33,462 nt of DNA from a virus (taxonomy: Duplodnaviria; Heunggongvirae; Uroviricota; Caudoviricetes): the IMG/VR virus record IMGVR_UViG_638341087_000016. One strand, written 5' to 3'. Below, piece by piece: positions 1 to 32,875 of the stretch. A model generated the notes under the pieces. The model worked only from the letters and a program-made list of their open reading frames with translations. It had not been told where the DNA came from and did not search any database. Position numbers and translations under genes: made by a program. Positions within the stretch are counted from its first letter, which is position 1, and each line of letters begins with the position of its first letter.

Positions 1-966
1 ATGAAGCTATACATCATCGGGAATGGGTTTGATCTGCATCACGAACTTGACACGAGCTATTTCTCATTTGGGGATTATCTTCGGAAGAAAGACCAAGACA
101 TTTACGATCACTTGGTTGATTTTATGGGATTTACTGACTTACCCCCTAAACTTTCCGCAGTTGATAAGTCAAAACATTTTCTTTGGTCTGATTTCGAAAA
201 CAGCTTAGCGGGTCTGGATACAGAGTCAGTGCTCGAAGAGTTTTGCTATCTTTTACCCCAAATTAGCAGCCCTGATTTTCGTGACAAGGACTGGGGCTCA
301 TTAAGCATTGAAATGGAACGTATACTAAAAAATTTAACCGAAGGGCTTTTAACACAATTCAAGTCATTTATATTGCAGGTTAACTACCCCGAACTTAATT
401 TAAATAAAAGATTGCGTATCGATTCTGACTCTATCTTTATCAGTTTTAATTATACTGAGACTCTTCAGAAATACTATGGTATTGATGATAGACAAATTTT
501 ATATATCCATGGAAAAGCATCATCAGATCAACAGTTGATTTTAGGTCATGGTATTGACCCTATCAACTTTGAAGAAAAGGAAGCAGTCCCGCCCGAAAAT
601 GCAACCGATGAAGAACTTGAAGAGTGGCGTCAGTGTATGGCTGATAATTACGATCACTCTTATGAAATGGGAAAGCAGACTATTAATAAATACTTCACTT
701 GTTCTTTTAAGAATACTGAAAAAGTCATTGCTGACAGCGCTAAATTTTTTAAAAATCTCAGCAACGTAGACGAAATCATCATCATCGGCCATTCGTTATC
801 ATCTGTAGATGTTCCCTACTTTTCTTTTATACATAGCATTGTTAGTGAAAATACGGAATGGATAGCCACCTATTATCAGGAAACTGAGCGTGAAGCACAT
901 CATACAACATTATGTGAGATTGGCATTAAATCTCCCAAACTGATTTCAGTAAGTAAACTTCTATAA
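1..966 (+). CDS. AbiH-like abortive infection protein
   Basis: 321-aa ORF beginning MKLYIIGNGFDLHHEL, the N-terminal signature I associate with the AbiH family; AT-rich relative to the phage core. Confidence 0.55.
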   Translation: MKLYIIGNGFDLHHELDTSYFSFGDYLRKKDQDIYDHLVDFMGFTDLPPKLSAVDKSKHFLWSDFENSLAGLDTESVLEEFCYLLPQISSPDFRDKDWGSLSIEMERILKNLTEGLLTQFKSFILQVNYPELNLNKRLRIDSDSIFISFNYTETLQKYYGIDDRQILYIHGKASSDQQLILGHGIDPINFEEKEAVPPENATDEELEEWRQCMADNYDHSYEMGKQTINKYFTCSFKNTEKVIADSAKFFKNLSNVDEIIIIGHSLSSVDVPYFSFIHSIVSENTEWIATYYQETEREAHHTTLCEIGIKSPKLISVSKLL

Positions 967-1550: not shown

Positions 1551-3275
1551 TCAGGCTATCAGGGGGCCGTATTTGCTTTTCAATGTGCCGGTTTTATTGG
1601 CCGTTGCGGTGAACTGCGCCGCCTGCCCACTGGCCCCCGTATTGGGGTGAGTATGTGATGCGGCAGTCTCTGCCAGCTCCCTCACCACGTCCAGGGTGTC
1701 GGTGAGCAGTGTCAGGACGTTAATCTCTTCGCTTCCCAGCTTTACCACCGGGGCAATCAGTTGTTGCGCCTGGGCCACACTTCGGCGAATGCCGCTGATT
1801 TTTTCAGTCAGTGCGCCGCTGACGTTTGACGTGACATCCCCTTTCACGTCGTCTGTAACATTGCCCGCGACATCCCGTTTCACGTTCCGGCCAACACTGA
1901 CGGAATTGTCCTTGCTGCAGGTTACTGTCAGGTTGCCGGATGTGCCGACGCTGTAATCCCCCTCGCTGATATGAACGACCGCCCCGGCCAGAAGTGTGGC
2001 CGTGCCAAGCACGGTTGTTTTATCTGTTGCCTGGACCGTAGTTTCACGGGCAACCACTTTGCGGATCTCTTCGTCGGTGGTGACTTCGCGAGTCATGGAG
2101 TTTTCGCGGATTGTCTGATCCGTCTGGCGTTCCCAGTCTCCGGCAACCGTCACGCGCTGCGATACACCATCGCGCTGTTGCTGCAACTGCTCACCGGGTT
2201 TAACCGCTGGCAGGTTATGACCCTCCGCCATAATCTGACGCACAAAGGGCTTATCCTGCCGCCCCTCAGTGAACCCAACTTCAACCAGCGTGCCAGGGGG
2301 CGGAAACTGAAACATTCCTGACTCGCTGCCCGCCATTGGCACAGGTAGTGGAACGGCAGAATAGATCGGCGTATTTGCGGCTGGCTTGCCGTCTTCGTCA
2401 AGCAGCTGGAGATCCACGGCATAGCGTGGGCGGAATGGATCGGCAATATCCCCCCCTGAAACATCCTCGCTTGGCGCTTCCACCCTAGCGAATCTTGGAA
2501 GATGCAGGCCGCTTGCCAGCTCCGGGAATGCGTTTTCAATCTGCCGCTGAATGGGTGATTTTTGCAATGGCTGGCCGTTGGCTTTGTTGCGGGGCTGCCA
2601 GGTAATTGCCATGTCATCGTTATTTAGCCGGACCTGGTTCAGCCGCTGGCCGTTTACCTCCGCACCCGGGCGCAGGCTCTGAATCATTGGCACAACCATT
2701 GAATTTCCGCCTGCCGATTCCTGGCTAAATTCGTGCGGGATCTCCACTGGTTTTCCCGCAAAAAGACTATGCTCCGCAGCGCCGACGAAGACATCCCCGT
2801 CCGGCAACTGATACCAAAGATAATCCGTCACTGAAAATGCACGGCCCAGACTGGCAAAAAGCTGATAGCCCGTGCCGCTGTGCGTAAAGTGGGGGATCGG
2901 TTTATCTGCATAAGCAGCGCCGACCGGCGTTGTGACGGTCAGCCCGCTTTGCTCACTTATCCAGTCAGTAATCTGGCGCAACGTTGGATGCTGGAAAGAA
3001 CACGGCCACAATTTATCAAAGATGCCGACCAGCTCACGCACGAACAACCGGCATGTTCCATTATCAGCAGGCTGTGACCGTTCGACGTACCCGGTAAACC
3101 AGCGCAGGACCAGACCATCATAACCAACATCGATACGCACCATTTTGCCGGTGTAATCTGTCTCTGTCCCTGCCGTAATAAACCCCCGACCGCACGCGTT
3201 CAGCTCCAGCACGATATTGCAGTCAATCAGATGGACCGGATCAGAGGAAAGGTACAGGCGTTTAATTGGTTTCAT
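1551..3275 (-). CDS. D: Late control gene D-like baseplate hub protein with a C-terminal spike-like extension
   Basis: 574 aa; N-terminal region has the gpD-type VGYDG...FTGYVE pattern; C-terminal region has short repeats and an SHTHPNTG motif resembling spike apex HxH motifs; ATG start and TGA stop verified. Confidence 0.65.
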   Translation of the reverse strand: MKPIKRLYLSSDPVHLIDCNIVLELNACGRGFITAGTETDYTGKMVRIDVGYDGLVLRWFTGYVERSQPADNGTCRLFVRELVGIFDKLWPCSFQHPTLRQITDWISEQSGLTVTTPVGAAYADKPIPHFTHSGTGYQLFASLGRAFSVTDYLWYQLPDGDVFVGAAEHSLFAGKPVEIPHEFSQESAGGNSMVVPMIQSLRPGAEVNGQRLNQVRLNNDDMAITWQPRNKANGQPLQKSPIQRQIENAFPELASGLHLPRFARVEAPSEDVSGGDIADPFRPRYAVDLQLLDEDGKPAANTPIYSAVPLPVPMAGSESGMFQFPPPGTLVEVGFTEGRQDKPFVRQIMAEGHNLPAVKPGEQLQQQRDGVSQRVTVAGDWERQTDQTIRENSMTREVTTDEEIRKVVARETTVQATDKTTVLGTATLLAGAVVHISEGDYSVGTSGNLTVTCSKDNSVSVGRNVKRDVAGNVTDDVKGDVTSNVSGALTEKISGIRRSVAQAQQLIAPVVKLGSEEINVLTLLTDTLDVVRELAETAASHTHPNTGASGQAAQFTATANKTGTLKSKYGPLIA

Positions 3276-3282
3276 CGTTTAA

Positions 3283-3825
3283 TTACCCCAGCGCATCGTT
3301 GACCGGCTTTAAGACCTTTTCTTCAAACCAGCTCATTTTGTCGGCTGGCTCATCAGCTCCGGCAGCCGGACCCGCGCCCTTTGCCCCTGTTTGCTTGGTG
3401 CTGGCCGTCGCGTTGCCTTTTCGGGCCTGTCGTTTTTCCGGGACGCTGCCTTTTTCACGCAGGGTGAAACTTACCTGCCAGGCAAGGCGATCCTCCTGCG
3501 GTACGGCATCAATCTGACCGGTAAACGTGGCTTCACGAAGGTTGATAGCCGTCGCCGTCGCATTGGCGACGCGGTACTTTTTCAGTGCGCCGCTGGCTTC
3601 GGTCGCGGATGCCAGCTGGAAAAGCCGCTGTAAGACGGCTTCGTCGTCGAATGTCACCAGACCCGATACGCGCAGCTCTTTGGCCTTGATACCCTGTTCA
3701 GCATTGGCCGTGCTCGATGTCTGGCCCGACTGGTCCTTTTCCTGAAACTGCATGGAAGGTGAAACCAGCATGTTCTGCATGGCGATCCCTTCACCATCAA
3801 GCGCGAGTAATGCGGTCTGGCTCAT
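3283..3825 (-). CDS. Hypothetical phage tail/baseplate-associated protein
   Basis: 180-aa ORF in the tail operon, GC-rich like the phage core, Ala/Gly/Thr-rich; overlaps the upstream gene by 29 nt unless an internal Met is used. Confidence 0.4.
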   Translation of the reverse strand: MSQTALLALDGEGIAMQNMLVSPSMQFQEKDQSGQTSSTANAEQGIKAKELRVSGLVTFDDEAVLQRLFQLASATEASGALKKYRVANATATAINLREATFTGQIDAVPQEDRLAWQVSFTLREKGSVPEKRQARKGNATASTKQTGAKGAGPAAGADEPADKMSWFEEKVLKPVNDALG

Positions 3826-4531
3826 GTAGCATCTTCCCTAAGTCAGATAACGAATCCCCGATAAACATCATCGCGGCGGTATGCACTGCCGTTGTTTGCG
3901 GGATGCCTTTCAGCAATTCTGCGGCAGCAACGGCATAACTCCCGCTGTAACTGAATGCAAAAATATTCGCACTGGCGGCTTTCAGGTCGTCCAGTCCCTG
4001 GCTGAGCGAGGACAGCAAACCGGCCCGTTCCTGAATAAATCCCGTCACCTGGTTTTTTAGATCTGTTGTGGTGGTACTGACTGCGGCGGCCAGCTGCGCG
4101 GCGGCAACACGCTGGGCATTCAGCGCCAGCCGGTTGGTTGAGACTGATAACGGCGCACTGGCTGGCAATACATCGGCTTTAACCGGCAACTGCATTTTTA
4201 CCGTGCTGAGTTCTGCGGCGGCTGCGGCCATACGGCTTACCTGCGTAAATACCGGGGCCGGAAATACGGTGGACAGTTTATTCAGTCCCTGCATAAAAGC
4301 ATCGTGGGTATTCTCCGCCACCATCATGACGATGACATCACCGCTACCGCTACCGCTACCGCCACCGGATAACAGCTTTTTAGCAAGGTATCCCAGCGCA
4401 TTGGCCGGACTGAGATAACCGCCTGAATCGGTGTTCTGTCCCAGACCGTAAACCCAGGGATGCGCTGGCACAATTGAACAGGCCAGCGCCCCCATATCAT
4501 CAGCAATCTTTATAACCGACTCACGCCACAT
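3797..4531 (-). CDS. Hypothetical phage protein with a Gly/Ser linker
   Basis: ORF in the tail operon; start moved to the ATG at 4529-4531, which has a GGAGG about 9 nt upstream; contains SGGGSGSGSGD. Confidence 0.4.
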   Translation of the reverse strand: MWRESVIKIADDMGALACSIVPAHPWVYGLGQNTDSGGYLSPANALGYLAKKLLSGGGSGSGSGDVIVMMVAENTHDAFMQGLNKLSTVFPAPVFTQVSRMAAAAAELSTVKMQLPVKADVLPASAPLSVSTNRLALNAQRVAAAQLAAAVSTTTTDLKNQVTGFIQERAGLLSSLSQGLDDLKAASANIFAFSYSGSYAVAAAELLKGIPQTTAVHTAAMMFIGDSLSDLGKMLHEPDRITRA

Positions 4532-8854: not shown

Positions 8855-9182
8855 AGTTAACCTCTGTACTGACAGGGCCGAAATCGTAGGTTTCCGCCGT
8901 GATATACAACCTCGAAAGGGTTTCTTCGGTGATCACTATGGTTCCTGGGACCAGACGTTCGTCGCTTTCCACCAGTAAGGACAGTTGCGTCAGCACGTCA
9001 CCGCGCATTGTCGGGCTGCGTTCACCGATCAGGCGGGTGGTGATACCGCTTTCCAGAATGCTGTGAATAATGTCCTGGGTGATGCTGTCGCGGTTATCGC
9101 AACGGCGCGGCTCGTTGCCGCTGTCCAGCGTGAAATCGCCGTCAGTGATCAAAAGGTCGATGTATAACGGTTCGGTACTCAT
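8847..9182 (-). CDS. Small baseplate protein (gpW/gp25-like or Mu gp46-like)
   Basis: 111-aa ORF immediately upstream of the J-like gene with start/stop overlaps. Confidence 0.5.
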   Translation of the reverse strand: MSTEPLYIDLLITDGDFTLDSGNEPRRCDNRDSITQDIIHSILESGITTRLIGERSPTMRGDVLTQLSLLVESDERLVPGTIVITEETLSRLYITAETYDFGPVSTEVNYD

Positions 9183-10570
9183 CCTGCGTTAAGCTCCTGC
9201 CATTCAGCCAGCTGGGCCGGGGTGATTCCATTGGGGGCGTTGATGTAGGTATCGCCCCACGTTTTACGGTTATCAACAGCGGTTTTGCTGTCGTTTTTAA
9301 CCTGACTCATCAGGCCGCCGCGTGGGATGCCTGCATTAATTCGGTTCCCCGTCAGCACGGACGGGCTGTTTAGCTTCGATGAACCTGCAGCACTGTCAGG
9401 AATGACCGCATTTGCCGGAACGGCAGCCGCTGCCGGTGGCGAAACGGTTTTCAGGTCGATGTTTACGCCGGGGATCTTGTTTAACTTCTCGACAATCCAG
9501 TTATAGGTAGACGCAAAGGTATTTTTGAGGACGTCAAAAAGTTTGCTGAATACCCCGCCGATGGTTTGTGCGAACCCTTCAAAGGTGGCAAGCGGGGAAA
9601 GACCGGCAAAGAAATCAACCACCACGGCCCAGCCGTCTGTGATGGACTGCCAGACCTGCGCAAACACCTGGCCTACCTGTTCAGCGACCGACATCACCCA
9701 GGCAAAAGCCGACGTATCCATGATTGCTGCCGCCAGTTCTTCCCAGTGGGTGATGACATACCAGACCCCCACGGCCAGAAGTGCCAGCCCGGCAACGATC
9801 AGAGTGATCGGACTCATCAGGAGTTGCATTGCCGCCCCGGCAAACATGGTCGCCGCACCGTAAACCCGCATGGCAATGGCTCCGGCCTTTAACGCGATAT
9901 TCCATGCAGCAAGCGCGATGCGGCAGACGCCCGTCCACAGCGCCAGTAATTTTGACTGGATCCACAATGCAGCCAGACCGATGCGCGTCGTCAGCAGGAA
10001 CGGACGCAACAGGTTGAGCGTCCATAACAGGAGTTTCCATGCCCCGCCCAGCACTTTTGCAATTGCGGCCAGCCCTGTCATGGTGAAGCCAAAGACCCCC
10101 ATCACGATATTGACCGCCGCCCCAGCCAACCCGAAGGACAGCACGCCCAGGGTGATGTAACCCAGCCAGCGGGCAATATTCGGGAACATATCCAGCCAGC
10201 GGGCAAATTTTGTCCCTACGTCGGCAATACGGTTCATCAGCGGCGACAGGATAGGGAACAGCGTGTTACCAATCGCCACGCGAATGGCAAAGAATGTCGC
10301 TTTGATACGTTCCCACGGCTCAGCCATTCGTTCGGCCATTTCCTGGGCGCGTTTCATCCCGTCATTTCGGCCCAGCTCGGTGATGCTGCGGTTTAATTTA
10401 TCCTGCTGGCCGTACAGCTTTTTGATAACGTCAGCACCACCACCGAACGCGGCATCCAGCGCCTGTTGTGCCTTGACGTTCCCTTCAATGCTCTGCCCGT
10501 ATTTGTTCTGGAGTTTTTGCAGAATGTCGCCCATCGGCAGCATTTTTCCGGTGGCATCGACAAAGCTCAT
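9179..10570 (-). CDS. Tail tape measure protein, C-terminal portion (downstream of the in-frame TAG)
   Basis: 463 aa with hydrophobic Gly/Ala-rich segments typical of tape measure proteins; the frame stays open upstream from 10570 to 10732. Confidence 0.7.
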   Translation of the reverse strand: MSFVDATGKMLPMGDILQKLQNKYGQSIEGNVKAQQALDAAFGGGADVIKKLYGQQDKLNRSITELGRNDGMKRAQEMAERMAEPWERIKATFFAIRVAIGNTLFPILSPLMNRIADVGTKFARWLDMFPNIARWLGYITLGVLSFGLAGAAVNIVMGVFGFTMTGLAAIAKVLGGAWKLLLWTLNLLRPFLLTTRIGLAALWIQSKLLALWTGVCRIALAAWNIALKAGAIAMRVYGAATMFAGAAMQLLMSPITLIVAGLALLAVGVWYVITHWEELAAAIMDTSAFAWVMSVAEQVGQVFAQVWQSITDGWAVVVDFFAGLSPLATFEGFAQTIGGVFSKLFDVLKNTFASTYNWIVEKLNKIPGVNIDLKTVSPPAAAAVPANAVIPDSAAGSSKLNSPSVLTGNRINAGIPRGGLMSQVKNDSKTAVDNRKTWGDTYINAPNGITPAQLAEWQELNAG

Positions 10571-10732
10571 ACCCAGCTTTTCAGCGGCAGCCGGGGCGCT
10601 GCGTAAAAACTGCTCGTAGATCCCGCTGGCCTCAGTACCCAGCGTGCGCGAAAGCGTACCCAGTACGGCGAACTGTTCATCCAGGCTGACGCCAAAGTCA
10701 GCACCGGCGCTTTTCGTCCCCTCGATAAGCTC

Positions 10733-11293
10733 CTACATGGTCTGCATTTTCACGCCGAAGTTTTGCACCATGTACGCCGTTTTTCCTGCCAGCTCTTCGG
10801 CAAAACGCACATGCCCCAGACTGGACAATTCCGCGTTGAAACGTGACGCCATCGCGCCGATGTATTCGCCTGCCTCTTCGCCGCTGGCCTTGACGCCTGC
10901 GGCCAGGGTATTGGCCGCGATGGTAACGCGGGGCAGGTCCAGATCGGACAGGCCCGCCATTGCGCCTTTCATCGCGTAGCTTGACCGGACCACATCAACG
11001 GCCCCTTTGCCGTAGCGCATACTGAATCGCATGGCTTCGCCGGACATACGCTTCAGCGCGTCCTCTGCTACGCCTTTGGAACCCACTTCTGCAAGCGCGG
11101 CGTTCATCTCATACGCCGGACCCACCACGCCCGCGATGGACTGCGCCACGCCCCAGACAGCCGCCGCACCAATCCCGATTTTTGTAAAAGACTCCTGCGA
11201 TTTTTCAGCAAAGCCAGACAGCGAAGACTGGGCCGTCTTTAATGGCCGCGTCAGCTTATCGATCAGGCTCAGGGTAAAATCCAGGTGGCTCAT
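10733..11293 (-). CDS. Tail tape measure protein, N-terminal portion ending at an in-frame TAG
   Basis: 186 aa in the same frame as 9179-10570; TAG at 10733-10735 verified from the sequence; ATG at 11291-11293. Confidence 0.7.
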   Translation of the reverse strand: MSHLDFTLSLIDKLTRPLKTAQSSLSGFAEKSQESFTKIGIGAAAVWGVAQSIAGVVGPAYEMNAALAEVGSKGVAEDALKRMSGEAMRFSMRYGKGAVDVVRSSYAMKGAMAGLSDLDLPRVTIAANTLAAGVKASGEEAGEYIGAMASRFNAELSSLGHVRFAEELAGKTAYMVQNFGVKMQTM

Positions 11294-11294
11294 A

Positions 11295-11492
11295 TCAGTT
11301 TCCGTTAAATGCGATTGCTATCCCTTCCGCCGTCTTACTGGCGCGGGTCTGGGCGAAATATTCATCCAGCCACAGGGCGCGGGCGATGCTTTCTTCGTCG
11401 TCGTCTTCGTGCGGGAGGTAATAGCGGCGCAAGGCAAGGTATTGCTCCAGGGCATTCGTGCGAATGGCCGCTACCCGCGCCGTCAGTTTTTT
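11295..11492 (-). other. Candidate -1 programmed frameshift extension of the tail assembly chaperone
   Basis: mRNA reads GUA AAA AAC UGA at the chaperone end (slippery A_AAA_AAC at 11486-11492); the -1 frame is open for 63 codons to a TGA at 11295-11297; the +1 frame is also open across this gap, so the direction rests on the slippery heptamer. Confidence 0.55.
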
Positions 11493-11752
11493 ACTTCGAT
11501 CTCAAGTTTTGGGGAGTAAATTTCGTTAACCTTCTCGACGATCTGCATTTCGCAGCCCGGATAATCTTCCATCAGCTTGTTGAGCGCCTCTTTACACTCG
11601 GCATCAACAATGCGGCCCAGATACGTCACCATTGGGGCAACTTTATTGGTCATGGTCATTTCGTTAAGCAGGTTGTTGAACGCGGTTTTATTCGGCTCAA
11701 AGCTCAGATTTACGCCCGCCACGGTCATGGCGATTTTTTTCGATTTGCTCAT
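11483..11752 (-). CDS. Tail assembly chaperone
   Basis: 89-aa ORF immediately upstream of the tape measure gene, ending in a slippery heptamer. Confidence 0.6.
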   Translation of the reverse strand: MSKSKKIAMTVAGVNLSFEPNKTAFNNLLNEMTMTNKVAPMVTYLGRIVDAECKEALNKLMEDYPGCEMQIVEKVNEIYSPKLEIEVKN

Positions 11753-12045
11753 TGTGCTAATTCCTTACGTTGTCGAATGATGCCCACCAGGGCGTTATGT
11801 CGGGCGGCGCAGTCGGTATACATCAGCCGGTAGGCTTTCAGCGCCGCGTCAAAGTCACTTCCGGTCGGTCCGGCCAGACGTGGCAACGTGACCGGGCAAA
11901 GTGCCAGCTGGTTTTCCTGATAATTTTCGTTCGGCTTGATCTGCACTTTCGTTGAACAACCGGACGTAATCATCAGAAGCACAAACATTGCTAAAAACCG
12001 ATTTAATGGTTTCCGTGCGGATAACCCGTTCCGTATGAATTTCAT
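11749..12045 (-). CDS. o-spanin (Rz1-like outer-membrane lipoprotein)
   Basis: 98 aa with a positively charged N-region, hydrophobic core and MITSGC lipobox; starts inside the i-spanin gene and extends past its end. Confidence 0.6.
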   Translation of the reverse strand: MKFIRNGLSARKPLNRFLAMFVLLMITSGCSTKVQIKPNENYQENQLALCPVTLPRLAGPTGSDFDAALKAYRLMYTDCAARHNALVGIIRQRKELAQ

Positions 12046-12238
12046 TGGCCCTCAGCTCCGCGAGTTTTGCTTCCAGCGCTTCACCAGACTGCTGTGTCAC
12101 CTCAACAACAATCTGGCGCGTTTGTTCTGCCGCTTCACTGGCAGCGAGTTTCAGCTTTGCGTCGTGCCAGTCATGCGCCTGCCAGCCCGCTGACATTGCA
12201 GCTGCCAGAATCAGCAAAAGACCCAGCAAATTGCGCAT
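11855..12238 (-). CDS. i-spanin (Rz-like)
   Basis: 127 aa with an N-terminal TM helix (LLGLLLILAAAMSAGW) and a charged helical periplasmic region; follows the endolysin gene. Confidence 0.6.
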   Translation of the reverse strand: MRNLLGLLLILAAAMSAGWQAHDWHDAKLKLAASEAAEQTRQIVVEVTQQSGEALEAKLAELRANEIHTERVIRTETIKSVFSNVCASDDYVRLFNESADQAERKLSGKPAGTLPGHVATSGRTDRK

Positions 12239-22671: not shown

Positions 22672-25464
22672 TTAATCTGAAAGTTCACCAATATCATCCA
22701 TTGGTTTTTTATCATTAAAAGATAGACGAAGTTTTTGTTCATGTAATGCAGTGATTTTTTTACAACTATCTACAGAAATATAATAAAACGACAAGCCATC
22801 GTTATTAATAAATTCCAAATTAATCCTAATAGACATCAGCGCGTACATCAATGGATTTTCATCCTTGAAATTATACAACCCCTTAACTAAGGAAATATTC
22901 TCATCAGAAATACTTTCAATTTTCAAATCAAATAAATTAGTATTCCGCAGACAGGAAAATACGCTCAAAAAATCCATGTAGTAAAGACCAGGAGACCCCA
23001 AACCCAAAACTCCTTTTGAATCTGTTATTCTCATACCTTTTGAGTAACGGTAAACACTTGCCTCTCCTTTAACCATGTAATGAATTGTTATAAGCTTATC
23101 GGAAGGTAGTTCACTTACATCTTCGATCTCATTTACATCTTTATATTGGCCTTTAATTCCATCAAGCATTTTATGAAGCCAAGCATAGACAAACACTTCA
23201 GCATGATGTGAACTATTCATTGAATAATGCACTTTATCAATTGACTGCAAGACTTCTCTCTTATTAATCAATGAATAGAATGGATTGCAGACAACTGAAT
23301 TTGACACAGGAATAGAATCAATATCTACGAATTTATTAAAATACCCACCTAATGATATTGATACTTTATCTATGTATTTATTAACCAGAACCTTATCAAG
23401 GTCAGAAGAAACAATAGAATTTGCGATTAATTCATTTTTTACAGAAATTATACTTTCAAGATGCTCTGCAACCTCCATCCGATTTGTTTCTTGAGAAGAT
23501 CCTTCATTAATCAACTCTAATAAAGCTGAAAATTCATCACCTTTCAAATATGATATAAGTGATTGCAGTTCATGAGTTGTTATTTTTGTATTTTTAATAA
23601 ACTCTTTTTTATTACGTATAAAAATAGGATTGAGGTTGTTTTTATTAAATAATGTTTGAGTCATTAAAAGGGATACTGCTTTGAAAGCATCGTTATTTAT
23701 TGAAAAGGTTGCAACCTCATAATCAGGTATATCTCTTAAAGTTCTACTTGCATCAAAATCAGGTTCAGATGGGACTGTAAATATAACATCATACACGCCA
23801 CTCTTATAAAAAAGATCTTCTAGGAATGAAGGTGCTAACCATTTCATTAAATTCTGTTTTATTATTCTCAATTCCTCCTGATGCCCATCACTTTTTTCAG
23901 ATAAATAGCACAGCCTAATAATCAGTAAAGTTATAACCTGTCTTACACACGATACCATCTTGTTCTCAATGATACTAAGGGTTTCGCCATCATCAGATGA
24001 CTCTGGATAACGAAATTTCTCAGTCAAGAATCGAGTATTCAGGCTAAATGCCAAATAATTCTTTGACAAGATGTTGTCTCTCACCGTTGACATATATAAA
24101 TCAAAAAAACGATATTCTGGATCACCTAAACTATATTGAGCACGATGTTCCAATGACGGTGATATCAATTTATAAAATTCATCATATTGCTCATTATCAT
24201 AAATATACCTTCCCAAATCCATAATCGATCGAAGAGCATCACACACTATATTATAGTTTTTATACCCACTCACTTCAGAACTAACCTTCATATAAAAAGC
24301 AGCAAAAATTGAATACTCTATATTATTTTTTTTGTTAGTATAACCAAAAGAGTGATTGAGGTTATGTATTACTTTAACTAATTCAGTTTCACTAACTAAT
24401 GTGAAGATAGCTCTTATGCTAAAATCTAACGCTAACTCATTACCACTAAAAAGACTATTTCTTAAGCTAATAACTACTGCATCTTCATACTTACCGTAAT
24501 TCAAGAAGCTTTCAGGAGCTGAACTGAACACCAATCCTTTTTTCAATAGTTTTGTAACATTACTAATTAATAGCTCATCGATCGACGCTCCATCTTGCAC
24601 TTCAATATGAACCGATGAGGTTGATAGTGGATATATAAAGTTAAGATTCACGCGTAAATCAGTACGTACCACTTTCGAAAAACGCTCTAGCTCATTGTTA
24701 ATTTCTTTAAAGCAAATTGGACAAAAATCATTAATAATGACATTTTGATTATTTTGGAAAATATTTAACTTACGTTGTTCTTTATTGATAAAATCGGAAT
24801 CCCACCCATAATGAATATATTCAAAATCATTAATCATGTTTAAAAATTTATTTTCTATAGTTCTTCTACGTTCGTCAATCAATAAATAATCATTTTTAGC
24901 CTTATCAAGCTCAAAAAATAAACGATCAGTTATTATAGTTGGATTCTCAGTAACATTATATAATTTCAGATACATTGAACCATAATTAAAAATAAAGTAT
25001 AACGATACAAAAATGGATATAGCATAAGTAATCATGCCGCCACCACATGAAAGCAATACGATACCACTTAAAAGACTAAAAATAGAATTTAAACTAAACT
25101 TTAAAAAACTAGTTTTCCGCAACAACATCGACTTACAAATATTTTCAAAGCCATGTTCAGAATAATTAGAAACCTGACTAACAAACATTCCCATAAATGT
25201 AATTGATAGTGCAGCAATAGTTCCATGTATGCCTAAAACTCCCGCCCAAACACTAGTAGTCCAATTCAATGGGGAATTATTGAGAAAAGATGGTGTTACA
25301 AGTAAATACTTTACCCCTTCATCAACATATCTAGAGTAGATTACACCGGAAATACCCAACCCGACCAGAATAAAGTAGATCAAGAAGATAATTATAACTT
25401 CCCTATTTATACTTAAAAAACCATTATTAAAAATAATTTTTCTTTCCAAAATCAGACCCCACAT
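22672..25464 (-). CDS. Large membrane-anchored protein of unknown function; candidate single-gene anti-phage cargo
   Basis: 930-aa ORF with ATG start; about four N-terminal hydrophobic helices in residues 20-160 and a roughly 770-aa soluble region; very AT-rich coding sequence; no Walker A or other motif recognised by eye. Confidence 0.8.
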   Translation of the reverse strand: MWGLILERKIIFNNGFLSINREVIIIFLIYFILVGLGISGVIYSRYVDEGVKYLLVTPSFLNNSPLNWTTSVWAGVLGIHGTIAALSITFMGMFVSQVSNYSEHGFENICKSMLLRKTSFLKFSLNSIFSLLSGIVLLSCGGGMITYAISIFVSLYFIFNYGSMYLKLYNVTENPTIITDRLFFELDKAKNDYLLIDERRRTIENKFLNMINDFEYIHYGWDSDFINKEQRKLNIFQNNQNVIINDFCPICFKEINNELERFSKVVRTDLRVNLNFIYPLSTSSVHIEVQDGASIDELLISNVTKLLKKGLVFSSAPESFLNYGKYEDAVVISLRNSLFSGNELALDFSIRAIFTLVSETELVKVIHNLNHSFGYTNKKNNIEYSIFAAFYMKVSSEVSGYKNYNIVCDALRSIMDLGRYIYDNEQYDEFYKLISPSLEHRAQYSLGDPEYRFFDLYMSTVRDNILSKNYLAFSLNTRFLTEKFRYPESSDDGETLSIIENKMVSCVRQVITLLIIRLCYLSEKSDGHQEELRIIKQNLMKWLAPSFLEDLFYKSGVYDVIFTVPSEPDFDASRTLRDIPDYEVATFSINNDAFKAVSLLMTQTLFNKNNLNPIFIRNKKEFIKNTKITTHELQSLISYLKGDEFSALLELINEGSSQETNRMEVAEHLESIISVKNELIANSIVSSDLDKVLVNKYIDKVSISLGGYFNKFVDIDSIPVSNSVVCNPFYSLINKREVLQSIDKVHYSMNSSHHAEVFVYAWLHKMLDGIKGQYKDVNEIEDVSELPSDKLITIHYMVKGEASVYRYSKGMRITDSKGVLGLGSPGLYYMDFLSVFSCLRNTNLFDLKIESISDENISLVKGLYNFKDENPLMYALMSIRINLEFINNDGLSFYYISVDSCKKITALHEQKLRLSFNDKKPMDDIGELSD

Positions 25465-25828: not shown

Positions 25829-28441
25829 TCATTCTTTAGGGTAGCGACCTTCCGCACCCGCCAGCATTTTTTGATATTCCCAGACCGGATCAAACCGCAG
25901 GTGCGTGGCATCAATGCCGTGGTTATCCCGTAAATGTTCCCATAATTTATTCACCGTCCGTGACTCATTAGGTAATTGACGCGTTATCAACTGGCCGCCA
26001 GCACTGGCTTGATAAAATTTCCCGCCAATCTCCAGACGGCTCCCCATTAACAGCGAAACGGCCTGAATCTCTGAAATCTCAACCAAACACAACGCCGCAT
26101 CAGCCAGCAGACTGGCAACCGCAGGGGCAAGCGCTGCCCGCCTGGCTTTATCAGCCACCGATCTGGCCTCGGTTTTTTCCACGGCAGAACGCCAGGCAAC
26201 ATCTAATTCGCTCCCTGGTTCATAAGGTGATCCGCTGTGCCGCCTTTTGAATGGTGCTTCACGTAGTCGCCGTATCAATTTGCGCCGCGTTGGCTGGTCC
26301 ATATTTTCAAAATCGACGATTTCCTCTTCTGATTCTTCTGTAATACCCTCCACACCAGGCGAAAAATCGGTGATTTTTTCGTCTTCCGTAGAGTTATTGA
26401 CAGAACTCCAAGCGTCGCCGGTTGGCGACGGCAAAAGGTCAACCCCCAAACCGGGGCCGCTTTTGGCCCCAGTGACGGTTTTGGATTTGGCTCGAATTTT
26501 CCACTTAACCAGACGGGTGCAAATACGGGAGGCATCCCCCAGACGCGGCGACCAGACCCCGAAAACCTTTTCGGGGATCTCACAATAAGCATTCATTTCA
26601 TCAGCGGGCTGATAGGCCAGACGGACGACATAGTTTTCTCGCGGGATCAAAACACCACCCTGGCGGATGATGTAAGTAGCAAAGCATCCGACATCGGCAG
26701 CGGCGCAAACCGCATCCATTGCAGGATCCACAAGCAATGGCGCACCACGTTTGAAGGTACTGTCAATTTTCTGTCGGGTCGTGATCTGATTACTAAGTTT
26801 GCGCAGCTCGCGGTAAACCGATATGGGCGGCTGTCCGATGGGCTGAAACTGGCGGATACGGTGAAGCGATGCCCAGGCCATTGCATATTTGGCGCTTTCA
26901 TTCAGCGGCTTGCCGCTTTCGTCGTCCAGTTCACCGGCCAGCGCGTGGCCGTCGATATTCTTCGAAATGTATTTAGCGATGTATGCCGTTGCTGACCCTT
27001 TCCGTGGGTCCATTTTTTTTGACTTGAAACGAGCGCCGGTATTGCGGCCCAGCTCGTCGCGGTCTTCCGCAATGAAGTAGGTGCGAAGGATCGCAACCGT
27101 GGCTTTGACTTGCTCTTGTGGCATAAACAGCAACGCGTGCCAGTGTGGTGTCCCATCGTGATGCGGCTCGGCGACACGGAAGCCATAAGGGCGCAAATCT
27201 TCGCGTTTCAGTTTGGCGGTTGCCCGGTTCCACACACGGCATAAATAGCACTGCGCCTGGGCGACGGTGGAATGATTCCATTTGGCGTTATGGTGGCCGG
27301 ATGCAATATTACTGTGATATTTCGACGGGCAAGTGATTGTCAGGAAGATGCCAACATCGCCGCGACTTTGGGCAACAAGCTCAACCCCAGCCATTCGGGC
27401 CATAAGCTCATGGCGACGAATAGCCGGGTTTGACGTGGATTTATTAATCATGTCCTCAAGTGAGGAAACGTTGCCGTCTTCGTCTACCAGTTCATGACTT
27501 TTGAAAAAATCCCGGTTTTTACGGCGCTGTTCCTGCCACTCGATCAGGCTGGAAGCGCTAACGTATGCGTGCGCTTTTTTATTTACCGCGCCAACGGCTC
27601 GCAGCTGGTTTTCGCGCCAGTCACAACGCAGGCGCCAGATTTTGCGCCCCCACCAGTCAGGCGAAGCCATACGCAAAATGGCCGTACATATCCGATCACG
27701 TTCCCACGGCGCATACCATGCAGGCGGCACAATGCGAAGCGCCAGCATTTCGCGGCCCAGATGACAATAAAGCCAGTCCAGTTCTTCGACGTTCATGTCG
27801 GAAACATTCTGTCCCAGGGCTTCGCATTCCGTCCCCAGCATTTCAGCCATGCGGCTGGCGATCTCATTAGCGGCGCTTAGTGCTTCCCGCTTTGTGAAAT
27901 CAGCCAGCCGTTGCCAGCGCCCGAACCAGTACGCGGCCAGTTCGCCGGTGATATCAGGCGAAACACCTTGCCTTGTGCGCACAACATCAAGACGCAGCAA
28001 TGATTTTTTCACTGTCCCCATAAGAAAATCATTGGTGTGTCTGGTTTCACGGTTGACCCGTAACCACTCAATTTTTTTACGCCAGACTTCACGAATGAAG
28101 AACGGCTCTGATAATAAACGTGCTTCGACACCTTCTGGCGTATTGGCCCAGGCTGCCGCCGTGGCTTTAGCGGCTTCCATTTCTTGCCGGATTATATTTT
28201 GATGGGCGGCCAGTGGCAGGCCGCATGGTTCGTACCTGTCCAGCGCCTGGATGAGCGCATCACGGTCACGAACTTCGGCGGGATTGTAACCGGCACGTTT
28301 GAAGATGTGATCGATATGTTTTTTTACGGCAGGATGATGCGCCACCGCCCCAGCAAGCGGGGCGATTTTTTTCGGTTCATAGATGTACGGGCCAACAGCT
28401 GGACGCGGTGCGTTCCAAGGCCATGCGAAAGCGTTAGTCAT
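25829..28441 (-). CDS. A: Replication initiation protein A (rolling-circle nickase)
   Basis: 870 aa containing ATAYIAKYISKNIDG, the active-site tyrosine motif of P2 gpA-type initiators. Confidence 0.85.
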   Translation of the reverse strand: MTNAFAWPWNAPRPAVGPYIYEPKKIAPLAGAVAHHPAVKKHIDHIFKRAGYNPAEVRDRDALIQALDRYEPCGLPLAAHQNIIRQEMEAAKATAAAWANTPEGVEARLLSEPFFIREVWRKKIEWLRVNRETRHTNDFLMGTVKKSLLRLDVVRTRQGVSPDITGELAAYWFGRWQRLADFTKREALSAANEIASRMAEMLGTECEALGQNVSDMNVEELDWLYCHLGREMLALRIVPPAWYAPWERDRICTAILRMASPDWWGRKIWRLRCDWRENQLRAVGAVNKKAHAYVSASSLIEWQEQRRKNRDFFKSHELVDEDGNVSSLEDMINKSTSNPAIRRHELMARMAGVELVAQSRGDVGIFLTITCPSKYHSNIASGHHNAKWNHSTVAQAQCYLCRVWNRATAKLKREDLRPYGFRVAEPHHDGTPHWHALLFMPQEQVKATVAILRTYFIAEDRDELGRNTGARFKSKKMDPRKGSATAYIAKYISKNIDGHALAGELDDESGKPLNESAKYAMAWASLHRIRQFQPIGQPPISVYRELRKLSNQITTRQKIDSTFKRGAPLLVDPAMDAVCAAADVGCFATYIIRQGGVLIPRENYVVRLAYQPADEMNAYCEIPEKVFGVWSPRLGDASRICTRLVKWKIRAKSKTVTGAKSGPGLGVDLLPSPTGDAWSSVNNSTEDEKITDFSPGVEGITEESEEEIVDFENMDQPTRRKLIRRLREAPFKRRHSGSPYEPGSELDVAWRSAVEKTEARSVADKARRAALAPAVASLLADAALCLVEISEIQAVSLLMGSRLEIGGKFYQASAGGQLITRQLPNESRTVNKLWEHLRDNHGIDATHLRFDPVWEYQKMLAGAEGRYPKE

Positions 28442-31861: not shown

Positions 31862-32875
31862 ATGACAATTAAGAAACTCGATGATGGTCGTTATGAAGTG
31901 GACATCAGACCTGCAGGGCGCAACGGAAAGCGCATCCGCAGGAAATTTGACAAGAAAAGTGAGGCTGTAGCTTTTGAGAAACACACTCAATACAACCATC
32001 ACGATAAAGAATGGTTGGCTAAACCGACAGATAAGCGGCATCTGTCTGAATTAACGAAAGTCTGGTGGGATCTGAAAGGCAAGCATGAAGAACACGGAAA
32101 ATCTAATTTGGGTAAGATTGAAATCTTTACCCGGATCACTGATGACCCTTGCGCGTTCCAGATAACCAAAGCGCTTATTAGCCAGTACAGCATGACTCGC
32201 AGAGGGCAAGGCATAAAACCGACCAGTATTAACCGCGATCTTACCTGCCTGAGTGGTATGTTTACTGCGCTAATTGATGCGGAATTGTTCTTTGGTGAAC
32301 ATCCTTTCAGAGGGATGAAAAAGCTCAAGGAGCAGAAACCAGAAACCGGCTATCTGACGCAGGAAGAAATAACATTGTTGCTTGCCAATCTTGACGGGGA
32401 CAACAAGAAAATCGCGATTCTCTGTTTAAGTACCGGCGCTCGATGGGGTGAGGCCGCGAAACTGAAAGCTGAGAACGTAATACAGAATCGGGTGACGTTC
32501 GTTAAAACAAAGACGAACAAACCGCGTACTGTCCCTATCTCTGAGGAAGTGGCTGTAATGATTGCGGGTAAAGGTTATCTGTTCCCTGATGCCTCATACC
32601 CGAAGTTCAGGCGAACAATGAAAGATGTAAAACCAGATCTACCGGACGGGCAAGCAACTCACGCATTGCGTCACAGTTTTGCTACCCACTTTATGATTAA
32701 CGGCGGGAGTATCATCACCTTGCAGAGAATACTGGGACATTCACGGATAGAGCAGACAATGGTTTATGCGCACTTTGCCCCGGAGTATCTTCAGGATGCT
32801 GTTTCACTCAATCCGCTACGTGGTGGTGTTGACTCCCAGAGTGTCCACACTGTGTCCACACTGTGTCCACAGTAG
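31862..32875 (+). CDS. int: Tyrosine integrase (P2 Int-like)
   Basis: 337 aa with near-identity to P2 Int over long stretches (KKLDDGRYEVDIRP.GRNGKRIRRKFDKKSEAVAFEK; HALRHSFATHFMINGGSIITLQRILGH.RIEQTMVYAHFAPEYLQDA). Confidence 0.95.
   Translation: MTIKKLDDGRYEVDIRPAGRNGKRIRRKFDKKSEAVAFEKHTQYNHHDKEWLAKPTDKRHLSELTKVWWDLKGKHEEHGKSNLGKIEIFTRITDDPCAFQITKALISQYSMTRRGQGIKPTSINRDLTCLSGMFTALIDAELFFGEHPFRGMKKLKEQKPETGYLTQEEITLLLANLDGDNKKIAILCLSTGARWGEAAKLKAENVIQNRVTFVKTKTNKPRTVPISEEVAVMIAGKGYLFPDASYPKFRRTMKDVKPDLPDGQATHALRHSFATHFMINGGSIITLQRILGHSRIEQTMVYAHFAPEYLQDAVSLNPLRGGVDSQSVHTVSTLCPQ
32841..32872 (+). repeat. 11-bp tandem direct repeat (gtgtccacact, about 2.9 copies) at the 3-prime end of int
   Basis: gtgtccacact gtgtccacact gtgtccacag, immediately before the int stop codon. 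Confidence 0.8.

Follow-up and report, generated by a model that had tools for sequence, protein, structure and literature searches.

A premature amber codon in the tail tape measure gene of an Irrigatiovirus-like prophage of Escherichia coli

Two neighbouring open reading frames on the minus strand of the DNA studied here (33,462 nt, referred to as the window) share one frame and are separated by a single TAG codon. This raises the question whether the codon marks an inactivated tape measure gene, a stop that is read as an amino acid, or a mistake in the sequence. All three options had been put forward in an earlier note on this DNA, together with a comparison with relatives as one means to decide between them.

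The reading frame and its interruption

The following features, all on the minus strand, describe the interrupted gene:

9179..11293, minus strand: frame of the tape measure gene, disrupted (2115 nt; 704 codons plus TGA)
10733..10735, minus strand: premature amber TAG, codon 187 of the tape measure gene (CAG, Gln, in relatives)
10733..11293, minus strand: ORF of the N-terminal fragment, 186 aa, same sequence as NCBI WP_000018643.1 ('hypothetical protein [Escherichia coli]')
9179..10570, minus strand: ORF of the C-terminal remnant, 463 aa, starting at the first in-frame ATG

The N-terminal ORF runs from the ATG at 11293 to the TAG at 10735-10733 and encodes 186 aa. Past this TAG the same frame is free of stops until the TGA at 9181-9179, and translation of 9179-11293 as a whole yields 705 codons with a stop only at position 187 and at the end. 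The description of two ORFs in one frame with a lone TAG between them is thereby confirmed in its coordinates, and the estimate of about 704 aa for the read-through product agrees with the 704 sense positions plus terminator counted here. The ATG at 10570, where the 463-aa ORF begins, lies 55 codons beyond the TAG, and no in-frame ATG, GTG or TTG is found between the two. This remnant, which contains the hydrophobic middle region and the C-terminus, is a separate gene for gene callers, its expression being a prediction.

In complete E. coli genomes the intact allele is one uninterrupted CDS of 2115 nt annotated as 'phage tail tape measure protein' (WP_000018644.1/WP_000018645.1). The 2115-nt frame of the window matches 18 of 5,426 complete E. 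coli genomes with 99.8-99.9% nucleotide identity, and the 704 aa which the earlier note considered a normal tape measure length are the length of the annotated protein in these 18 genomes. The Salmonella phages SI7, SW3 and SW5 (Peduoviridae, Irrigatiovirus) share 96% nucleotide identity over the full tape measure gene, and their records likewise annotate the tail tape measure protein as a full-length CDS. The assignment as a tape measure gene made before is therefore upheld by annotated genes from both E. coli and Salmonella phages. Because the read-through with Gln187 equals the annotated 704-aa protein of relatives, the open frame is not a product of chance. Moreover, SI7, SW3 and SW5 are phages isolated on Salmonella (PMC6783827) which carry the full-length CDS, and the uninterrupted 704-aa form is therefore taken to be functional. 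Further support for the tape measure identity comes from the gene order, as a PF10963 chaperone gene lies directly upstream (chaperone, tape measure with ATG at 11293, DUF2590, baseplate J).

For profile searches we used the intact allele, which is the same as the window product except for Q187 and S432. The intact protein matches PF10145 (PhageMin_Tail) over residues 86-284 with 67.1 bits (cut-off 33.2) and TIGR01760 (tape_meas_TP901) over residues 49-385 with 63.5 bits (cut-off 28.8). The stop at codon 187 falls within both matches and bisects the conserved core domain. The 186-aa fragment alone has no match to Pfam or NCBIfam, and the 463-aa remnant retains a partial match to TIGR01760 (36 bits, profile positions 203-345). 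A single uninterrupted frame for the whole tape measure protein is thus missing from the window, where the internal TAG at codon 187 breaks it, and the gene in the window is a pseudogene, or amber allele, of the tape measure gene.

Codon 187 in related loci

Over the 71 nt around the codon the window differs from both E. coli 2011C-4251 and phage SI7 at a single position, which turns CAG into TAG. On the plus strand this is an A at 10735 in the window and a G in the relatives, a C to T change in the coding strand. The TAG-bearing 71-mer has 70 of 71 positions in common with each of the 18 complete E. coli genomes and is found exactly in none of them. Public collections were scanned with a 47-nt pattern in which the codon was left free, yielding 19 IMG/VR contigs and 8 metagenome contigs. 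CAG was found in every locus that was read directly, namely in these contigs, in five complete genomes and in phage SI7 (33 of 33 related loci), and besides the window the only loci with TAG are two Logan contigs identical to it. The same pattern gave no match among the GTDB representative genomes, in which E. coli is a single representative, so this result is uninformative. The comparison proposed earlier thus has a clear outcome, a single-base difference with CAG in all 33 loci. Because every relative that was read has CAG, the TAG is derived and arose by a lineage-specific C to T transition; the change of Gln187 to amber is a derived, lineage-specific change.

With only one base separating the window from every relative, an error of sequencing or assembly, with a true CAG codon and an intact gene, had to be considered. 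However, the same TAG is present in Logan assemblies of two separate SRA runs: identity to the window is 100% both for SRR9418141_154 (20,561 nt) and for SRR9418142_1061 (3,419 nt), the TAG included in both cases. The exact 186-aa product has its own NCBI accession (WP_000018643.1) and is found on at least five contigs of 3.4 kb to 220 kb. The site (CCATG-T-AGGAG on the coding strand) does not lie in a homopolymer. Because nine further SNPs and two indels of the window are absent from all relatives covering them, it represents a distinct lineage rather than a noisy copy. The five assemblies could all represent one strain, and random error would be excluded even so. A random sequencing or assembly error, one of the options of the earlier note, is therefore very unlikely.

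The prophage and its other changes

Judged by its genes, the element is an Irrigatiovirus-like, P2/HP1-like Peduoviridae prophage of E. coli. The assignment to Irrigatiovirus relies on the 96% identity to SI7, SW3 and SW5 over the tape measure gene and on the same flanking genes. Pfam families found in the element include Phage_GPO_N, Phage_cap_P2, Phage_term_smal, Phage_GPL, P2_Phage_GpR, HP1_Orf24, Baseplate_J and HP1_ORF34. The late region comprises, in this order, sheath (DUF2586), tube (HP1_Orf24), holin, M15 endolysin, spanins, the PF10963 chaperone, tape measure, DUF2590, baseplate J and tail fibre. In addition to P2-type capsid, scaffold, terminase and portal genes, the prophage carries ogr, cox, a repressor-like HTH gene and an integrase gene, and ogr, cox and integrase are annotated in the relatives as well. 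In complete E. coli genomes the integration site lies between yegQ/trhP and yegR, and the window covers the element from its left end, where an AbiH cargo gene lies, up to yegR.

This abortive-infection gene (1-966, plus strand; PF14253 with 205 bits, AbiH according to PADLOC) adjoins yegQ/trhP, and every complete E. coli relative that was examined has it. As defence cargo it could favour keeping the prophage even if the latter is tail-defective. An ORF of 925 aa (22672-25449, minus strand) between ogr and the replication endonuclease gene is annotated as 'hypothetical protein' in relatives and has no match in Pfam or PADLOC. The distal gene of the tail cluster (1551-3275, minus strand) encodes a protein of 574 aa, whose similarity to the OB domain of Phage_base_V is weak and below threshold (17.8 bits, cut-off 23.8); it may be the central spike or hub. 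The spanin pair (11749-12238, minus strand) consists of partly overlapping genes in different frames, a 127-aa Rz-like ORF (11855-12238) and a 98-aa ORF (11749-12045) with a lipoprotein-like signal ending in TSGC; the latter ORF is not annotated in the RefSeq relatives.

A second case of two ORFs that could belong to one product is found directly upstream of the tape measure gene:

11483..11752, minus strand: tail assembly chaperone, 89 aa, PF10963, upstream of the tape measure gene
11295..11492, minus strand: predicted -1 frameshift extension of the chaperone, from sequence and translation

The final codons of the chaperone gene form a canonical -1 slippery heptamer, A_AAA_AAC, at 11492-11486. 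The -1 frame is open for 63 codons, ends with a TGA at 11297-11295 and thus stops 1 nt short of the tape measure ATG at 11293. An ORF of 45 aa annotated by RefSeq as 'DUF6890 family protein' sits inside this frame. The P2 E/E+E' and lambda G/GT chaperones have the same type of -1 frameshift, and on this analogy 'DUF6890' is probably no gene of its own but the frameshift extension of the chaperone.

Compared with its closest relatives the window has 10 lineage-specific SNPs, counted as such when absent from all relatives covering the position, and two repeat-slippage indels in 33.5 kb. Besides the stop, the SNPs comprise four synonymous, one intergenic and four missense changes, the latter being S432F in the tape measure, K11N in the sheath, G854W in the replication endonuclease and A121T in the integrase. 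On the minus strand, 3' of the stop, the tape measure gene carries S432F (window position 9999) and the synonymous V359V (window position 10217). Three of the 10 SNPs (Q187*, V359V, S432F) therefore fall within the 2.1-kb tape measure gene, which makes up 6% of the window; this share may hint at relaxed constraint after the stop, the counts being too small to conclude.

One of the two indels concerns an 11-bp unit, GTGTCCACACT, at 32830-32862 (plus strand), which is present in three copies in the window and in two in all compared relatives. The extra copy changes the C-terminus of the integrase (31862-32875) from STVG to STLCPQ (337 versus 335 aa). The altered residues follow the conserved catalytic region, and the change is probably harmless. 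The other is a 6-bp ACCGCT expansion at 4340-4345 within the gene 3797-4531 (minus strand). It adds one Gly-Ser to a GGGSGSGSG linker of a tail-region protein, which has 244 aa in the window and 242 aa in relatives. None of the other 37 genes in the window has an internal stop, and the tape measure stop is the only disabling lesion in the window. From the sequence, the pattern looks like a recent, single-hit inactivation.

Lesions of other kinds are seen in sister copies of the element. The copy of RM13322 (L005, 40979-42192) has an IS3 insertion in the early region, in O103:H2 PV16-126 (L006, 35823-38434) a 1-bp deletion (window position 27013) splits the replication endonuclease gene, and in SW071610 (NZ_CM129858.1) about 40% of the element is missing, the tape measure gene included. 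Further truncated tape measure alleles, P0002, P0003 and P0011, are members of the 90% protein cluster that contains P0001. P0002, a Logan protein of 227 aa, stops immediately before Gln228 and is possibly a second nonsense allele; P0003 and P0011, from records of 5.3 Mb and 4.6 Mb, have divergent end residues consistent with frameshifts. These copies show that this prophage family decays in other lineages too, by independent lesions.

Consequences of the stop and alternative readings

The reading we favour, with a probability of roughly 0.8, is that a spontaneous C to T change in one prophage lineage turned the CAG (Gln) at codon 187 of the tape measure gene into TAG and disabled the gene, as ordinary decay, leaving a tail-defective prophage that is otherwise intact. 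In a suppressor-free host RF1 would end translation at the TAG, giving a 186-aa N-terminal fragment from which half of the core domain, the hydrophobic region and the C-terminus would be missing. Phages need the tape measure protein to start the polymerisation of the tail tube on the baseplate and to set its size. In the P2 tail this protein is seen as density in the tube lumen and as a three-helix bundle at the spike end (bioRxiv 10.64898/2026.09.14.750843), and in TP901-1 its length determines tail length (PMC5099701). The infectivity of TP901-1 requires the N-terminal 154 aa, the C-terminal 60 aa and the hydrophobic region of the tape measure in one protein (PMC5099701). From this we infer that neither fragment functions and that the phenotype is tail-less: filled heads with few or no tails would be formed, and the prophage would therefore be non-infectious or nearly so. 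Immunity, integrase, replication, lysis and head genes as well as the AbiH cargo remain intact. Among the options raised before, the tail-defective prophage is thus the best supported, as the change from CAG to TAG is derived, absent from relatives and halves the core domain, the phenotype itself being predicted.

Could the two fragments nevertheless build a tail together, possibly a shorter one, with the 463-aa part made by reinitiation at the ATG at 10570? Both ORFs are called by gene callers, and TP901-1 tolerates in-frame internal deletions of the tape measure, which shorten its tails (PMC5099701). However, the stop is followed by 55 codons without an in-frame start, no good Shine-Dalgarno match is seen by eye upstream of ATG 10570, the break lies inside the conserved core domain, and the two-gene arrangement occurs in no relative. 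Together with the need of TP901-1 for its N- and C-terminal regions in one chain (PMC5099701), this makes a split but functional tape measure highly improbable. Even less credible, to a degree that we regard it as practically dismissed, is programmed readthrough of the stop or a recoding of TAG as Gln. The window resembles TAG-to-Gln recoded phages and genes with readthrough signals in having an in-frame TAG at a Gln position of a late structural gene, but it differs from them in that the TAG is single and unconserved. A stop at codon 187 is absent from all 33 related loci that were read and from the 18 complete genomes. The other 37 genes of the window have no in-frame TAG, and TAG is the true terminator of three of its 38 genes. 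The sequence downstream of the stop is the same as in the CAG-bearing relatives, and no stimulatory RNA structure is apparent in the 101 nt from the stop, whose folding energy (-34.2 kcal/mol) is close to the mean of shuffled versions (-33.2 kcal/mol; z = -0.28). Programmed readthrough or recoding was rejected on the CAG in all relatives read, the plain RNA fold and the stop-free other genes. A suppressor tRNA encoded by the phage was rejected as well, ARAGORN having found no tRNA genes in the window.

Suppression by the host is unlikely too. Here the amber codon would be decoded by a supE-type glnV/glnX tRNA, or read by a near-cognate tRNA-Gln, and the prophage would be at least weakly productive. 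The ancestral CAG codes for Gln, so that insertion of Gln at the UAG would give back the unaltered wild-type protein, a point not made in the earlier note. Of the stop codons in E. coli UAG is the leakiest, and its near-cognate readthrough inserts Gln, basal readthrough typically staying well under 1%. As about three tape measure copies suffice per tail, the P2 tape measure being a three-helix bundle, a low yield of wild-type-like particles is possible because the codon is leaky, Gln is inserted and few copies are needed. The allele also persists in at least five assemblies with the remaining prophage genes intact, and a suppressor would disturb few genes of the window, since TAG ends only three of 38. 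On the other side, the window itself has no tRNA gene, and a recent mutation accounts for the intact state of the other genes just as well, given that 33.5 kb contain no more than 10 lineage-specific SNPs. There are reports of amber suppressors from natural coliform isolates; most natural E. coli are not known to carry a strong one. A literature search for natural amber suppressors in E. coli isolates gave nothing useful. There is only a slim chance that the element is a natural 'conditional' prophage in which Gln insertion at the UAG regenerates the wild-type tape measure and some infectious particles are still released. If it were, the prophage would be fully productive in a suppressor host or after a one-step reversion from TAG to CAG, and the host would retain AbiH defence and immunity functions from a prophage that does it almost no harm.

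The disabled tape measure gene of the favoured reading has close counterparts among known systems. Laboratory amber mutants, such as those of P2 gene T and lambda gene H, are alike in having a single CAG to TAG change in a tape measure gene of the P2 family, and the expected phenotype of such tail-gene ambers is alike as well: a sup0 host would make no tails and a supE host the wild-type protein. They differ in that they were obtained by mutagenesis and selection, whereas the allele described here is that of a natural prophage with a predicted phenotype. SI7, SW3, SW5 and the WP_000018644.1 allele share the gene, its 2115 nt and the gene order but have CAG at codon 187 where the window has TAG. 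Cryptic or defective E. coli prophages likewise combine an inactivated structural gene with intact immunity, integration and AbiH cargo; in contrast to such decayed elements, the present one is at a very early stage, with one disabling lesion in 33 kb that a single transition could reverse. Mechanistically there is nothing new in this, as it is the natural counterpart of a laboratory amber mutant and ordinary early prophage decay, and it has no bearing on open questions of decoding or tail assembly.

For annotation it follows that both ORFs, including WP_000018643.1, should be treated as one tape measure pseudogene or amber allele. For predictions of prophage activity it means that this prophage is probably non-infectious, though automated tools would call it intact. 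The element illustrates cleanly how prophage decay begins, with one reversible point mutation in an otherwise complete 33-kb element.
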